A DNA stretch of 64,000 bases, taken from IMG/VR virus record IMGVR_UViG_3300034062_004781. One strand, 5' to 3'. The position numbers and the translations under genes were made by a program. The notes under the pieces were generated by a model. The model searched no databases. It saw only the letters and a list, made by a program, of their open reading frames with translations, and was not told the DNA's origin. Source of the DNA: an uncultured virus (IMG/VR IMGVR_UViG_3300034062_004781). Taxonomy: Duplodnaviria; Heunggongvirae; Uroviricota; Caudoviricetes. Each line of letters opens with the position of its first letter. Positions within the stretch are counted from its first letter, which is position 1. Of this stretch, positions 3,009 to 59,044 are shown in pieces.

Positions 3009-3097
3009 AGCGATGGCAATCTTGCTGGCGGTAATAATCGAAATAGTGTTGGGGCTGAAATGAGCGAAATCATAAAGTTCCCCGGAAAAACTTATGC

Positions 3098-3128
3098 GCT
3101 TGACTTATCAAGCATTTCGGCCCATAAC
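3098..3128 (+). promoter_or_regulatory. Promoter with overlapping palindromic operator upstream of the XRE gene
   Basis: TTGACT(3100)-N17-CATAAC; GCTTGA-N4-TCAAGC (3098-3113) overlaps the -35. Confidence 0.55.
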
Positions 3129-3175
3129 TATTCGGTCGGACTCTGCGTCCGGCAGGCACAATCAGAGGAGCATCG

Positions 3176-49220: not shown

Positions 49221-49529
49221 TTATTCAAAATCGCTGTCGTCATCTTCGTCGACAGAAGACGCTGCTCGATCCATCGCTGCTTTTCCCAAGGGGGTGTCTG
49301 CCAGCATCCCCAGAGCATCCATGTAAACTGAAAGTAGAGCCTGCTCCTCTGCTCTCTTTGAAGCATCCTTCTTGCGAAGAGCCAGAACCTTTTTAATGAT
49401 TTTAGGATCGAAGCCATTGGCCTTCGCCTCGGAGAATACGGACTTAACGTCATCGGCGAGCGCCGTGCGTTCCTCTTCTAACTTTTCGATTCGCTCAACA
49501 AGAGCCTTGAGCTGGTTGTTTGACGACAT
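49221..49529 (-). CDS. gapR: GapR/DUF2312 nucleoid-associated protein
   Basis: QLKALVERIEKLEEE...EAKANGFDPKIIKKVLALRK...YMDALGM. Confidence 0.88.
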   Translation of the reverse strand: MSSNNQLKALVERIEKLEEERTALADDVKSVFSEAKANGFDPKIIKKVLALRKKDASKRAEEQALLSVYMDALGMLADTPLGKAAMDRAASSVDEDDDSDFE

Positions 49530-49717: not shown

Positions 49718-49746
49718 TTGTAGAGTGAAGAAACTTCATATATGGT
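49718..49746 (+). promoter_or_regulatory. Early promoter 1 with palindromic operator
   Basis: TTGTAG-N17-TATGGT; spacer contains GTGAAG-AAA-CTTCA. Confidence 0.65.
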
Positions 49747-49781
49747 GATTCTATTGATTGAGATTGAACTGGAGACTGACC

Positions 49782-50084
49782 ATGAACAACACCGCTGCTC
49801 TCGCCGACGCCTACGCCGCTCTCAAGCACGAGGAAGCCTCCATAAAGGCTCGCCTCGAAACGCTCAAGGGCGAAATCGTCTCCTACGGCGAGAAGGAGCT
49901 GGTCGGCGACACCTGCATCGTGGCGCTGGTCGAGAAGAAGGGCGCTTCGACGCTCGACAAGGATGCCGCGCTGAATCTGCTGCGTTCGCTCGGTGCCTCT
50001 GACGAGCAGATCGCCAGCCTGACGAAGATCGGCAAGCCGTCGACGTCACTGCTGATCAAGCCGAAGCTGTCGCTGGCTATATAA
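49782..50084 (+). CDS. Early hypothetical protein
   Basis: MNNTAALADAYAALK...; RBS GGAG. Confidence 0.75.
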   Translation: MNNTAALADAYAALKHEEASIKARLETLKGEIVSYGEKELVGDTCIVALVEKKGASTLDKDAALNLLRSLGASDEQIASLTKIGKPSTSLLIKPKLSLAI

Positions 50085-50138
50085 GGTCGAAACGGGGCTC
50101 CGGCCCCGTCTGTCCGTCAAGCGGGCACTGATGAGACC
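50085..50138 (+). ncRNA. Type II hammerhead ribozyme 1
   Basis: GGTC-GAAAC-GGGGC-TCCG-GCCCC-GTC^-TGTCCG-TCAAG-CGGGCA-CTGATGA-GACC: full core and three stems. Confidence 0.92.
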
Positions 50139-50151
50139 GATGGAGATTGAT

Positions 50152-50304
50152 ATGATCAAGGTGCGCAAAAACTCGAAGATCAAAGTGTGGAACATCTATG
50201 CGTTCGATGGCGAGAACCTCGGCACCTATTCGTTCCATACGCAGGAGGTGAAAGCTTATTTTCCCGGCTGCACGATCAAGGGCAACAACGTCTACCTTTT
50301 GTAA
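50152..50304 (+). CDS. 50-aa early protein flanked by two hammerheads (not in ORF track)
   Basis: MIKVRKNSKIKVWNIYAFDGENLGTYSFHTQEVKAYFPGCTIKGNNVYLL; GGAGATTGATATG start. Confidence 0.75.
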   Translation: MIKVRKNSKIKVWNIYAFDGENLGTYSFHTQEVKAYFPGCTIKGNNVYLL

Positions 50305-50356
50305 GGTCGAAACGCTCTTCGGAGCGTCTGACGGTCAGGCCGTCACTGATGAGACC
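50305..50356 (+). ncRNA. Type II hammerhead ribozyme 2
   Basis: GGTC-GAAAC-GCTC-TTCG-GAGC-GTC^-TGACGG-TCAGG-CCGTCA-CTGATGA-GACC; compensatory changes relative to copy 1. Confidence 0.92.
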
Positions 50357-50369
50357 AAGGAGAATTGAC

Positions 50370-50600
50370 ATGCGTTCTATTGCTGTTATCGCTCGCGAGA
50401 TCCGCGCTGATTGGAAGAAGCCTTACTTTGGCGCTGTGCCGTATCTCGATGCAATGTGCGAGCTTAATTCAATCAACGACAACTATTACTATGATAGCGG
50501 CGAATCAGTCGTTCGTTATTTTCTTGCCAACGCCAATACATGGCGCGGCGAGAAGGCTCGCGCTGTTAAAGCTGAACTCAAAAAGATTTTGGGAGAGTGA
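50370..50600 (+). CDS. Conserved phage early protein
   Basis: MRSIAVIAREIRADWKKPYFGAVPYLDAM...YFLANANTWRGE. Confidence 0.8.
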   Translation: MRSIAVIAREIRADWKKPYFGAVPYLDAMCELNSINDNYYYDSGESVVRYFLANANTWRGEKARAVKAELKKILGE

Positions 50601-50601
50601 T

Positions 50602-50889
50602 ATGAGCGAAGATAAAAAATATACAGCATTCGTTCGCGCAGGCGGAACTTGCTCTTGGTATTGTGCCGAAGGAAAAACAGAGGCAGCGACGAAAGCCGTT
50701 CAACAATACAAGCGCGACTTTAAACACGTCTTCAAGATCAAGAAAGGCGTCGAATACAAGGTCGTCGTGTTTGACACGACAGGCATTGAAGAATGGGTCA
50801 CAGATGACGATGGCTTTCTTCATCCATTTTACAATGGCGTCGCAAGCGATCCGATCAAAGATTATGAGATTGTAAAAGTATATGCTTAA
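50602..50889 (+). CDS. Early hypothetical protein
   Basis: Start MSEDKK after GGAGAGTGATATG. Confidence 0.7.
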   Translation: MSEDKKYTAFVRAGGTCSWYCAEGKTEAATKAVQQYKRDFKHVFKIKKGVEYKVVVFDTTGIEEWVTDDDGFLHPFYNGVASDPIKDYEIVKVYA

Positions 50890-50928
50890 ACGATGGGGCT
50901 ACGGCCCCATCTAACACCGGAGATTGAT

Positions 50929-51138
50929 ATGCTCGAGATCATCAAGCCAATACCTGATAGCCCTCTGCATAATGAGAGCGATGCGTCTCTAAAAACGCTG
51001 ATCAATTATTTTAGAGACGACATGCAGATCAGGCCGAACGCTGTCATCATCGAGCATCATGCAAACAAGATCGATGAAATATACAAAGTGCTCGGATATC
51101 GCTGCGCACTTGAATACATCAAACAGTATGGAGATTGA
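50929..51138 (+). CDS. Early hypothetical protein
   Basis: GGAGATTGATATG start, MLEIIK. Confidence 0.65.
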   Translation: MLEIIKPIPDSPLHNESDASLKTLINYFRDDMQIRPNAVIIEHHANKIDEIYKVLGYRCALEYIKQYGD

Positions 51139-51139
51139 T

Positions 51140-51583
51140 ATGGGAACGCGCGCTGTTTACACCTTCAACGACGGTGATGATCGCTTTCACGTTTACAAGC
51201 ACTGGGACGGCTACCCGTTAGGCGCTGCGCTCTTCTTCATGAAGGCCATCCCCTATGCATGGGGCGGTAAACGCTTTGAAGCTGGCGATTTTGCCGCAGC
51301 CTTCATATCTGGCAACAAGCCCGAAGGCGGTGGCGACGTCTACCTTACAAAAGGCCCCAATGCCCATTGCGACCTCGAGTATGTGTATGAGCTCTACCAG
51401 AACAAGCTGGGTGGCCTGATGATCAAGGCCTACCATATGGACTGGGATGGCGAGACAGACAAGACCAGCAAGAAGCGGTTCTTCAATGGGTCACTGGTCA
51501 GCTTTGTCATGGAGCATGGCGACGACGAAGCCAAGCAAAAGGCCGATGAGCACTGGAATCTGAGCCCAAAAGCAGCCGCATAA
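51140..51583 (+). CDS. Early phage protein (MGTR...HWDGYP family)
   Basis: MGTRAVY...YKHWDGYP. Confidence 0.75.
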   Translation: MGTRAVYTFNDGDDRFHVYKHWDGYPLGAALFFMKAIPYAWGGKRFEAGDFAAAFISGNKPEGGGDVYLTKGPNAHCDLEYVYELYQNKLGGLMIKAYHMDWDGETDKTSKKRFFNGSLVSFVMEHGDDEAKQKADEHWNLSPKAAA

Positions 51584-51612
51584 AAAAGAGGGCCTTCGGG
51601 CCCTTTTTCTTT
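51582..51612. terminator. Bidirectional Rho-independent terminator
   Basis: AAAAAAGAGGGCC-TTCG-GGCCCTTTTTCTTT. Confidence 0.8.
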
Positions 51613-51622
51613 GTCAGGTGAA

Positions 51623-51651
51623 TTGACATAGTGAAGTTTCTTCACTATCCT
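51623..51651 (+). promoter_or_regulatory. Early promoter 2 with perfect palindromic operator
   Basis: TTGACA-N17-TATCCT; ATAGTGAAG-TTT-CTTCACTAT (51628-51648). Confidence 0.8.
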
Positions 51652-51678
51652 ACGAATCATCAACTGATGGAGATTGAT

Positions 51679-52011
51679 ATGTGCAACGTCAAAAATGCTC
51701 CCGAAGGCCGCTACTTCGTCGAATCCGGCTGGTCTGACCGCACCCCTTGGGTCGTCGTCAAAGAGAGCCCCTCGGGCATGACCCTGACCCTTGTGCCGGT
51801 CGAGGTCGAAAAGGATCCCGAGTTTAAGCCTGACTTCAGCGTCGGCGGCTTCTCGGCCCACTGCAACAATAACCATGAGCAGACGTGGCTGTATGCCGGC
51901 ACCTGCCCCATGCGCAAGAAGACGATCCGCCTTGGCAAAAAAGGCTGGGCCAGCGGCACGTTCCGCGAGACGCACAAAGGTCCGGTGCGCTTCTACGATT
52001 ATAACTTCTAG
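51679..52011 (+). CDS. Early hypothetical protein
   Basis: GGAGATTGATATG start, MCNVKNAPEGRYF. Confidence 0.75.
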   Translation: MCNVKNAPEGRYFVESGWSDRTPWVVVKESPSGMTLTLVPVEVEKDPEFKPDFSVGGFSAHCNNNHEQTWLYAGTCPMRKKTIRLGKKGWASGTFRETHKGPVRFYDYNF

Positions 52012-52060
52012 TCGAGGGGCTACGGCCCCTCACCTTCCTCTCAATTTTATGGAGATTGAT

Positions 52061-52354
52061 ATGCAGGACAACGCCAACACCATCAAGGTTTCTTACCCGG
52101 AAGCTTTCATCACGGTGAAAGAAGACAAGCGCCGTGACTGGTCGGAAATCGCCGTCTATGTCGATCCCGTTCTGCCGGGTGCGGGCAAGATCTGCGCTTC
52201 AATCATCACGCATCCCTGCAAGGGCGCAAAATGGTTCGTGCATGACCGTGACACGGGATGCCGTGGAGTTCCCTTCAAAACCAAAAAGCTTGCTCTGTGG
52301 GCTGCTATTGAAGCAGCCAAAGACATCGAAGCTTACAAGCATCACGCAAAGTAA
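52061..52354 (+). CDS. Early hypothetical protein
   Basis: GGAGATTGATATG start, MQDNAN. Confidence 0.7.
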   Translation: MQDNANTIKVSYPEAFITVKEDKRRDWSEIAVYVDPVLPGAGKICASIITHPCKGAKWFVHDRDTGCRGVPFKTKKLALWAAIEAAKDIEAYKHHAK

Positions 52355-52365
52355 TGGAGATTGAT

Positions 52366-52602
52366 ATGACCAACCCTAACCCCGACTTCATCGTTCACGC
52401 TGGCGAGTGTGCCACTGTGTGGGGCTTTGAGCCTCAGAACGAAGTGGCTTTAGACTTTATTCAGGAACTTGGTGGAGAAGATTGGCAGTGGAACGGCAAG
52501 ATCTTCTACACCGACCATCGTCCTGCGCGTGATCTTGCGCGTTACATGGTTGGCGAAGGCTTTGTCGTTATGCATCCTCAATACGGTTACTTTGGAGGTT
52601 GA
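52366..52602 (+). CDS. Early hypothetical protein
   Basis: GGAGATTGATATG start, MTNPNPDF. Confidence 0.7.
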   Translation: MTNPNPDFIVHAGECATVWGFEPQNEVALDFIQELGGEDWQWNGKIFYTDHRPARDLARYMVGEGFVVMHPQYGYFGG

Positions 52603-52603
52603 T

Positions 52604-52933
52604 ATGGATCAGTCGCGTCCCTTTATTCTCGCGTCTACCGAGCTTTGCTATGAGGCTAATCCGACGCTGTGGCATCTATACTGCGCATTGACTAATCGAA
52701 TCATCGGACAGCCTAGCGCACTATGGACTGAGCAAGACGTTGTCATCGCAATACTAGCAAGAGGACTAAACCCAAATGACGCCAGAAAAAATGATTCAGA
52801 TAATGAACAATCAAGGTCTGTCAAATCAGGATATCGCTTCGATATCCGGCGTGACATATCGACAGGTAATGTCATGGCGGTCAGGGAAGCATCCAGTTCC
52901 AATGATGCTGTCGTTTTTGTTGTCGGCGCTTGA
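52604..52933 (+). CDS. Hypothetical protein (3' part overlaps the HTH gene)
   Basis: GGAGGTTGATATG start, MDQSRPF. Confidence 0.45.
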   Translation: MDQSRPFILASTELCYEANPTLWHLYCALTNRIIGQPSALWTEQDVVIAILARGLNPNDARKNDSDNEQSRSVKSGYRFDIRRDISTGNVMAVREASSSNDAVVFVVGA

Positions 52934-53000: not shown

Positions 53001-53146
53001 AATAAACGGCCCGAGGCATGGCGTCCTCGGGCCTTATGTTACGCGATATCAGCATGTAGCTGCGTGTGAGTTTTCTCGATTCCGTTCTCCGTCGTATTAA
53101 GTATTTATCCGCCATTACATAGATTGCAGGGGCGGACGCCTACAAT

Positions 53147-58732: not shown

Positions 58733-58855
58733 TTACCAACCTCTCTTGTAAATATCGTATATCATGCGAACCATATTAAACACGAAGAACGCGCAAAGCG
58801 TCCATGCGACGATGACGATGGGGCCAATCAATAAAAAGTCCATGATGTGATTCAT
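58733..58855 (-). CDS. Small membrane protein (40 aa)
   Basis: MNHIMDFLLIGPIVIVAWTLCAFFVF...; ATGGAGATTGATATG start. Confidence 0.5.
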   Translation of the reverse strand: MNHIMDFLLIGPIVIVAWTLCAFFVFNMVRMIYDIYKRGW

Positions 58856-59044
58856 ATCAATCTCCATACATTAAAGTCTCAGCCGGCCCGGTTGCGTATT
58901 GAAGTAGCCATCGACACGCGGGTGAGTTGGGCCGGCTGAGGCGCAAAACGTAAGCGAACAGCCGCGATTCTGTCAATCCACAACCACCAGTTGACTTCAT
59001 CGCTACCCGCCGCTATGGATAGTGCGAATCGATATTGAGGCGCT

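Follow-up and report, generated by a model that had tools for sequence, protein, structure and literature searches.

Two type II hammerhead ribozyme motifs bracket a conserved 50-aa gene in a predicted small-gene transcription unit of an uncultured phage

Hammerhead ribozymes are self-cleaving RNAs, and their cleavage generates 2',3'-cyclic-phosphate and 5'-OH ends. In prophages, multiple hammerheads flank individual genes, and processing into single-gene mRNAs has been proposed in the account of these clusters by Perreault et al. (2011, PLoS Comput Biol, PMC3088659). According to the same account, three clustered prophage sets cleaved in vitro in ~2-kb polycistronic transcripts, and the A. 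tumefaciens set did so in vivo after cloning. In Desulfovibrio vulgaris, the type II hammerheads loc 2 and loc 3 are ~250 nt apart and cleave in vivo and in vitro, as stated in the cyPhyRNA-seq results for these loci (Olzog et al., 2021, PMC8782182). The passages of reviews that deal with such ribozymes (2017, PMC6155905; PMC6765202) describe them as flanking small ORFs and call their role an open question.

Here we describe a pair of type II hammerheads, HH1 and HH2, that bracket the 50-aa gene g2 in the window, which is the whole analysed 64-kb stretch of DNA from an uncultured freshwater phage. The ribozyme class, the topology and the placement between co-oriented small phage genes are the same as in the prophage clusters, as far as these are portrayed by Perreault et al. 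(PMC3088659). In contrast, the consensus published there has a pseudoknot between loop I and the 3' tail, whereas none is evident in the clade of the window. The flanked genes in that portrayal are not constant, whereas one conserved 50-aa family keeps its ribozymes here across different neighbours.

Like the pair in the window, loc 2 and loc 3 of D. vulgaris are two hammerheads that share a strand and have hypothetical and phage-like genes around them, as the text on these loci presents them (PMC8782182). However, they belong to another organism and have other sequences, and for the elements of the window cleavage is a prediction. The general description in PMC6155905, in its part on such ribozymes, fits the locus, with the difference that purifying selection conserves the flanked protein of this locus. 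That hammerhead clusters process polycistronic transcripts of phages has already been published in the sections of PMC3088659 cited above. The locus adds a good example to a known kind, and the self-processing proposed for it in an earlier note is largely anticipated in print.

The assignment of the window to a phage agrees with its gene content. On the basis of Pfam and PHROG annotation, the minus strand carries genes for the small and large terminase, portal, primase/helicase and HNH endonuclease, and a 1530-aa minus-strand protein contains a lysozyme-like segment. An island of small plus-strand genes sits between the packaging and the replication genes. Just upstream of the packaging genes and divergent from the hammerhead unit, a 102-aa ORF (49221-49529, minus strand) matches the GapR-like DNA-binding domain of Pfam (PF10073, E 6e-30; phrog_4212). 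At the far end of the island, a perfect 9-bp G+C-rich hairpin (53008-53033) lies between A- and T-rich runs, and it is likely a terminator that acts in both directions, separating the island from the HNH and replication genes on the minus strand.

Near-identical DNA is present in the IMG/VR contigs L127/L199 and L128/L200 and in 24 runs, all of them DNA, from freshwater, lake and other metagenomes. The nearest record, the 11.7-kb fragment G001, gave no hammerhead match. Searching the phage collection revealed no close cultured relative of the window; the matches there were short and fell on HNH genes and on a hypothetical gene of Gordonia phages that resembles g3.

The unit that contains the ribozymes spans ~1.8 kb and is ordered P1, g1, HH1, g2, HH2, g3, g4, a hairpin, g5, g6 and a terminator-like hairpin (Table 1). 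P1 is the putative start of the transcript carrying HH1 and HH2. We treat it as a presumed promoter because a generic sigma-70 promoter scan did not report it. The P1-like architecture (-35 TTGAC, TGAAGnnnCTTCA, -10) appears again at the second promoter-like site, on the plus strand, and in two relatives, L200 (~2200-2235) and L201 (~1430-1465). The window has two exact copies of the palindrome, one in each of the two sites.

In both promoter-like sites, the palindrome GTGAAGnnnCTTCA(C) is positioned between the -35 and -10 hexamers, and the relatives keep this layout. The shared palindrome resembles an operator through which a single regulator could act on the small-gene units in common. The unit g1-g6, which the earlier note took to be early, has a promoter-like and operator-bearing start, small genes and an orientation divergent from the packaging genes, and it may be early.

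The first gene of the unit, g1, has no Pfam or PHROG match, and g1-homologous DNA lies upstream of the HH1 equivalent in L201 and L208. Apart from the ribozyme sites, the junctions in the unit are tight stop/start overlaps within the initiation region. For example, g3 ends with TGA (50598-50600) and g4 starts with ATG at 50602, and the stop codon TGA of g5 falls inside the initiation motif of g6. The gap between g4 and g5 contains a G+C-rich hairpin, which L200 and L202 retain with a changed loop. It resembles stem III of the hammerheads of relatives, without the core and without stem I, and could be either the remnant of a hammerhead or a separate hairpin with a role in processing or stability. 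The terminator-like hairpin after g6 is the probable end of the unit.

Table 1. Features of the hammerhead unit and its surroundings (window coordinates; HH, hammerhead; SD, Shine-Dalgarno sequence).
Feature	Position	Strand	Description and basis
P1, promoter-like site	49719..49750	+	TTGTAG, 17 nt, TATGGT; palindrome GTGAAGAAACTTCA (49725-49738) between the hexamers
g1, first gene of the unit	49782..50084	+	100-aa protein; ORF list; TAA abuts HH1
HH1, type II hammerhead	50085..50138	+	Predicted cut 3' of C50110; sequence, Rfam 35.6 bits, MFE, descriptor, covariation
Predicted excised RNA, 218 nt	50111..50328	+	5'-OH, HH1 stem I hairpin, SD, g2, HH2 stem III hairpin, 2',3'-cyclic phosphate; two cut sites
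Initiation region of g2, 13 nt	50142..50154	+	GGAGATTGATATG; motif count in window
g2, conserved 50-aa protein	50152..50304	+	MIKVRKNSK...; 6 homologue clusters, dN/dS, AF2
HH2, type II hammerhead	50305..50356	+	Predicted cut 3' of C50328; sequence, Rfam 29.6 bits, MFE, descriptor, covariation
g3	50370..50600	+	76-aa protein, family phrog_13953, E 2.4e-31; SD AAGGAG directly after HH2
g4	50602-50889	+	
Conserved G+C-rich hairpin, g4/g5 gap	50892..50915	+	GAUGGGGC-UACG-GCCCCAUC; -18.6 kcal/mol, z -4.0
g5	50929-51138	+	
g6	51140-51583	+	
Intrinsic-terminator-like hairpin	51589..51613	+	AGGGCC-UUCG-GGCCCU and U-run; fold/sequence
Second promoter-like site	51623-51651	+	Starts next unit; same palindrome as P1

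HH1 and HH2 are bona fide type II hammerhead motifs. The earlier note had placed them here, each filling the space between a TAA stop and the ribosome-binding site (RBS) that follows, and both statements can be read directly from the sequence. HH1 follows the TAA at 50082-84 and is itself followed by the SD GGAG (50142-45) and the ATG at 50152. Its 5' half consists of GGUC (50085-88), the 5' strand of stem II, then GAAA (50089-92), stem III with CGGGGC/UCCG/GCCCCG (50093-50108), U50109 and C50110. The 3' half comprises stem I with UGUCCG/UCAAG/CGGGCA (50111-27), CUGAUGA (50128-34) and GACC (50135-38).

HH2 follows the TAA at 50302-04, and the SD AAGGAG (50357-62) and the ATG at 50370 come after it. 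In its 5' half, GGUC (50305-08) and GAAA precede stem III with CGCUC/UUCG/GAGCG, U50327 and C50328; in its 3' half, stem I with UGACGG/UCAGG/CCGUCA precedes CUGAUGA (50346-52) and GACC (50353-56). The predicted cuts fall after 50110 and 50328, as in the earlier note.

Both elements display the complete catalytic core, with CUGAUGA, GAAA and U-C at the cut, and the core-adjacent pairs U1.1-A2.1 and G10.1-C11.1. Loops cap their stems I and III and stem II is open, which is the type II permutation. Stem I has 6-7 bp, stem II 4 bp and stem III 6-7 bp. When HH1 and HH2 are folded in isolation, both the minimum-free-energy (MFE) and the centroid structure are the three-way junction (z -2.7 and -1.5). 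In a longer context, the MFE structure of HH2 shifts to an alternative fold that pairs the SD. Translation activated by cleavage was considered for HH2 and set aside, as the SD-pairing fold is confined to HH2 and is a single MFE prediction.

A strict descriptor requires the core, A15.1-U16.1 and H17, together with three helices whose minimum lengths are 4, 4 and 2 pairs. With both strands of the 64-kb window searched it has two matches, and these are HH1 and HH2. Over all of 200 dinucleotide-shuffled versions of the window, the same descriptor matched three times, corresponding to 0.015 expected per window. A covariance model specific to the clade recovered no further copy in the window (next best E>=1).

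The search with Infernal and Rfam that had been suggested gave matches below the family threshold. The Hammerhead_II model RF02276 aligns to both elements over its full length, at 35.6 bits (E 1.6e-5) for HH1 and 29.6 bits (E 5.7e-4) for HH2 in 601 nt searched, but neither reaches the gathering threshold of 37 bits. The shortfall stems from the loops, which are short, and from the 3' tail, which departs from the consensus. Because the scores fall just under the curated threshold, a default Rfam scan reports nothing, and at that threshold the whole window has 0 matches. Permissive Rfam searches returned, beyond the two hammerheads, matches at chance level (v-snoRNA-1, E 7; Atu_C9, E 0.84, on the terminator).

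Comparison with relatives confirmed that the stems differ in sequence yet keep their pairing, as the earlier note had described for the two copies. The alignment (MAFFT) contains 15 hammerheads, namely the two of the window, the ones beside g2 homologues at seven IMG/VR loci and a further two from g3-homologue loci. All 13 core nucleotides and the pairs A15.1-U16.1 and G10.1-C11.1 are invariant in 15/15 sequences. Standard pairs occupy 97.5% of the pair cells, against 85% with shuffled 3' partners and 32-49% with slid partners. Changes on both sides, which compensate each other in the relatives, are found in 10/17 pairs; stem II, for instance, occurs as GGUC/GACC, AGUC/GACU, GAUC/GAUC and AGCC/GGCU. 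In 500 shuffles, the percentage paired, the counts of changes on both sides and the score for covariation all stayed below the observed values. Owing to gap placement, the two innermost stem III pairs are left out in 8 sequences.

The ribozymes persist while g2 approaches synonymous saturation (dS 1.9 against L201 and 3.1 against L208), and therefore the ribozyme is maintained by selection. This bears on the question of whether the motifs still cleave efficiently. They might have become inactive intercistronic hairpins that act as stabilisers, nuclease sites or translational insulators, similar to the hairpin between g4 and g5. The conserved, core-less hairpin resembling stem III that lies in this other gap of the unit would fit such a role, and so would the Rfam scores under the gathering cut-off and the lack of a recognisable tertiary contact in the window clade. 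However, simple hairpins would not preserve CUGAUGA and GAAA, and the core and its two adjacent pairs stay invariant at a divergence that nearly saturates g2. We regard loss of activity as very unlikely.

The tertiary contact in question is a pseudoknot in which loop I pairs with the nucleotides immediately 3' of stem II, and which most type II hammerheads possess according to the consensus part of Perreault et al. (2011, PMC3088659). It is visible in the wider viral set, in which, among the matches listed, 88/153 hammerheads have at least 4 contiguous pairs, compared with 52.4 +/- 4.5 in 300 permutations (max 65), and the helices start at tail positions 0-2. In the window clade, loop I has 5 nt with the pattern U-N-A-N-G, and the loops of the window, UCAAG and UCAGG, have no partner at tail positions 0-2.

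The sole 4-bp complement of loop I (UCAA or UCAG with UUGA) is located 8-9 nt downstream, in the spacer between SD and AUG, as part of GGAGATTGATATG. We set this pairing aside as a candidate pseudoknot. The UUGA belongs to a generic GGAGATTGATATG, which has seven exact sites with or without ribozymes, and it stays constant in the relatives while loop I varies, so that there is no covariation and no pseudoknot is claimed. Since the contact between loop I and the 3' tail is not evident in the window clade, cleavage at cellular Mg2+ could be slow.

Most small genes of the plus-strand island begin with this initiation region. Exact copies of GGAGATTGATATG are found at 50142-50154, 50919-50931, 51130-51142, 51669-51681, 52051-52063 and 52356-52368 on the plus strand and at 58853-58865 on the minus strand, and copies with one mismatch at 50592-50604 and 52594-52606. 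Allowing up to two mismatches, the window contains 16 copies against 1.64 expected. The motif is present with and without a hammerhead, mostly at ribozyme-free junctions, and the TGA inside it is often the stop codon of the preceding gene.

The 50-aa ORF between the ribozymes had been proposed as a gene, and the comparison with its homologues bears this out. These form six clusters with lengths of 50 to 67 aa, the longer ones being gene calls that run back into the ribozyme. In five comparisons with computable dS, dN/dS ranges from 0.057 to 0.111; against L209 and L210, dS is saturated. To judge from these substitution rates, g2 is a real gene under strong purifying selection.

The AlphaFold (AF2) model of g2 shows a beta-beta-alpha-beta-beta arrangement with pLDDT 88. 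The protein has no Pfam or PHROG match and nothing usable in the ESM Atlas, and searching the PDB with the model gave no fold match at E<=1e-3, the weak rows returned having query-normalised TM-scores of 0.25-0.54. A contig scan for g2 relatives yielded 43 loci. In the one inspected, L217, the match is at motif level (EVKAYFP) within a 680-aa bacterial protein, which we take to be an oligopeptidase-type enzyme, and the 43 loci were rejected as g2 homologues and as a clue to the host.

The survey of related phages for flanked genes, which the earlier note had called for, found the g2 homologue bracketed in most cases. Among 13 viral loci encoding a g2 homologue, nine have a hammerhead on both sides. 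This count includes duplicates (L202 = L204; L203 = L206 = L207; L210 = L211), and L199 and L200 stand for the same contigs as L127 and L128. L205 and L209 have the downstream hammerhead only. In L205 the TAA of the preceding gene runs straight into the initiation motif, and in L209 a promoter-like AT-rich region lies upstream of the g2 homologue. L210 and L211 have a hammerhead upstream and a terminator-like hairpin downstream. A covariance-model search beside the g2 homologues revealed no missed hammerhead copies. Because L205 is without an upstream ribozyme, g2 is not strictly in need of 5' processing.

In L209, we also notice a third, more divergent hammerhead (3058-3138, plus strand), which brackets the gene after the g2 homologue. 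It scores 40.9 bits with the clade model and was missed by the strict descriptor.

The neighbours of the block of hammerheads and g2 change among the relatives. Upstream lies a g1-like gene (window, L201, L208), another gene termed gX (L200), an unknown gene (L202) or the promoter-like region of L209; downstream lies g3 (window, L200), a g6-like gene (L201), a g10-like gene (L208) or unknown genes. Meanwhile, g3 relatives occur in 72 viral loci. Four of these contain a hammerhead at all, and it lies directly upstream of the g3 relative in L127 and L128 only. Since the neighbours of g2 change and the g3 loci are mostly without hammerheads, the ribozymes go with g2. That they travel with this gene and not with a position is a small and modest addition to the 2011 description.

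The same distribution could be read in terms of recombination. The hammerhead, initiation region, g2 and second hammerhead would move as a block, and the sequences would serve mainly as homology patches, with cleavage secondary. The changing neighbours of g2 and the 2/72 g3-relative loci with a hammerhead directly upstream agree with such a linker. So do the breakpoints, in that the homology between the window and L128 breaks exactly at the 5' edge of HH1 and the mosaic homology segments that BLAST reports between related phages terminate at GGAGATTGATATG (window positions 50154, 50372, 50931, 51142, 51681 and 52063). However, gene boundaries are the usual breakpoints of phage mosaicism, whatever lies there. 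A linker would need neither an intact catalytic core nor compensatory changes in the stems, yet both are kept. We think it unlikely that the sequences are mainly homology patches; such a use is compatible with the self-cleavage explanation and does not replace it.

Self-cleavage and mobility may also be combined. The boundaries of the g2 RNA among the relatives are predicted to be a ribozyme, a promoter or a terminator, with L205 as the one exception. Tentatively, the hammerheads, the initiation region and g2 might form a self-insulating portable cassette that is inherited as a unit and that guarantees g2 a small RNA of its own at whatever site recombination places it. We consider this extension possible and rate it somewhat below an even chance.

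The layout at HH1 and HH2 extends to a larger group of hammerheads. The pattern of this subtype is found in at least 126 IMG/VR stretches, with up to four copies within ~2 kb. The wider sample comprises 185 non-redundant hammerheads, 177 of them evaluable, among the matches listed, and it is biased to this subtype, as the loci were chosen by the subtype pattern and as g2 and g3 relatives. Again among the matches listed, an ORF stop lies within 40 nt upstream in 154/177 (121 of these at a gap of -1 to +2), an SD with a start codon within 40 nt downstream in 142/177, and both in 129. Judged by these counts, placement from stop to RBS appears to be the rule for this hammerhead subtype.

Within the loci with the subtype pattern (at least 126), 57 distinct neighbouring pairs have cut-to-cut distances between 204 and 1375 nt, the median being 376. 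The range excludes two artefactual 31-nt values that arose from overlapping parses. A single-gene RNA of ~218 nt had been predicted for g2, and the distance between the cuts reproduces this length. As the listed pairs span 204-1375 nt, the unit stands at the short end of the ordinary range.

We consider it very probable that HH1 and HH2 are functional hammerheads in a ~1.8-kb phage transcript and that they separate the g2 RNA from its neighbours. Under this model, transcription would start at P1, and HH1 and HH2 would fold during transcription and each cut 3' of its GUC. Cleavage in vivo would split the message into a g1 RNA, the 218-nt RNA with g2 alone and a g3-g6 RNA. Each upstream product would end with a stem III hairpin and a 2',3'-cyclic phosphate, and each downstream product would start with a 5'-OH and a stem I hairpin, with the RBS at once after it. 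It is the type II topology that would leave the stem III and stem I hairpins on the product ends. The two ribozymes would single out g2 for physical separation in a unit whose other junctions are stop/start overlaps, and the likely purpose would be to make the stability and the translation of g2 independent of its neighbours.

The synthetic insulator RiboJ, derived from a hammerhead and placed before an RBS, removes the upstream RNA context and leaves a 5' hairpin. It offers a working analogy for the action of HH1 and HH2, but RiboJ is engineered and has a different topology, and no natural role is implied. The new ends may also influence decay. RNAs with a 5'-OH escape RNase E stimulated by a 5'-monophosphate, and in Bacillus subtilis such ends are substrates of RNase J1, as in the case of the glmS ribozyme. 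Because 5'-OH ends escape RNase E yet are RNase J1 substrates, the direction of any effect on stability would depend on the host.

A further fate of the excised RNA would be circularization. The chemistry of a 5'-OH and a 2',3'-cyclic phosphate fits RtcB. The 218-nt product could be joined by RtcB of the host, or by a hybrid hammerhead made of the 3' half of HH1 and the 5' half of HH2, to give a stable circular g2 mRNA. Because the stem II sequences of HH1 and HH2 are identical (GGUC/GACC), a complete hammerhead could be re-formed from the two ends of the excised RNA, which would bring the 5'-OH and the cyclic phosphate next to each other. However, the pairing between the ends is not conserved, with 4, 3, 3 and 1 contiguous pairs in L201, L202, L203 and L208 versus 4 in every cis stem. 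In 62 tandem pairs, among the matches listed, the cross-pairing equals that of irrelevant cross-combinations (3.18 vs 3.15), a weak comparison in which the pattern itself fixes much of stem II. Circular or spliced products were sought in the experiments recounted by Perreault et al. (PMC3088659), and none were detected in them. We regard a circular g2 mRNA as extremely unlikely and retain the linear single-gene RNA released by HH1 and HH2.

With one predicted promoter, two ribozymes and one conserved 50-aa gene, the locus is a compact test case for the self-processing of a phage message. Its natural variants offer a ready comparison, in that L205 has no upstream ribozyme, L209 has a promoter-like start and L210 has a terminator-like end. 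These variants could show whether ribozyme cutting sets the level or the lifetime of a single small-gene message.
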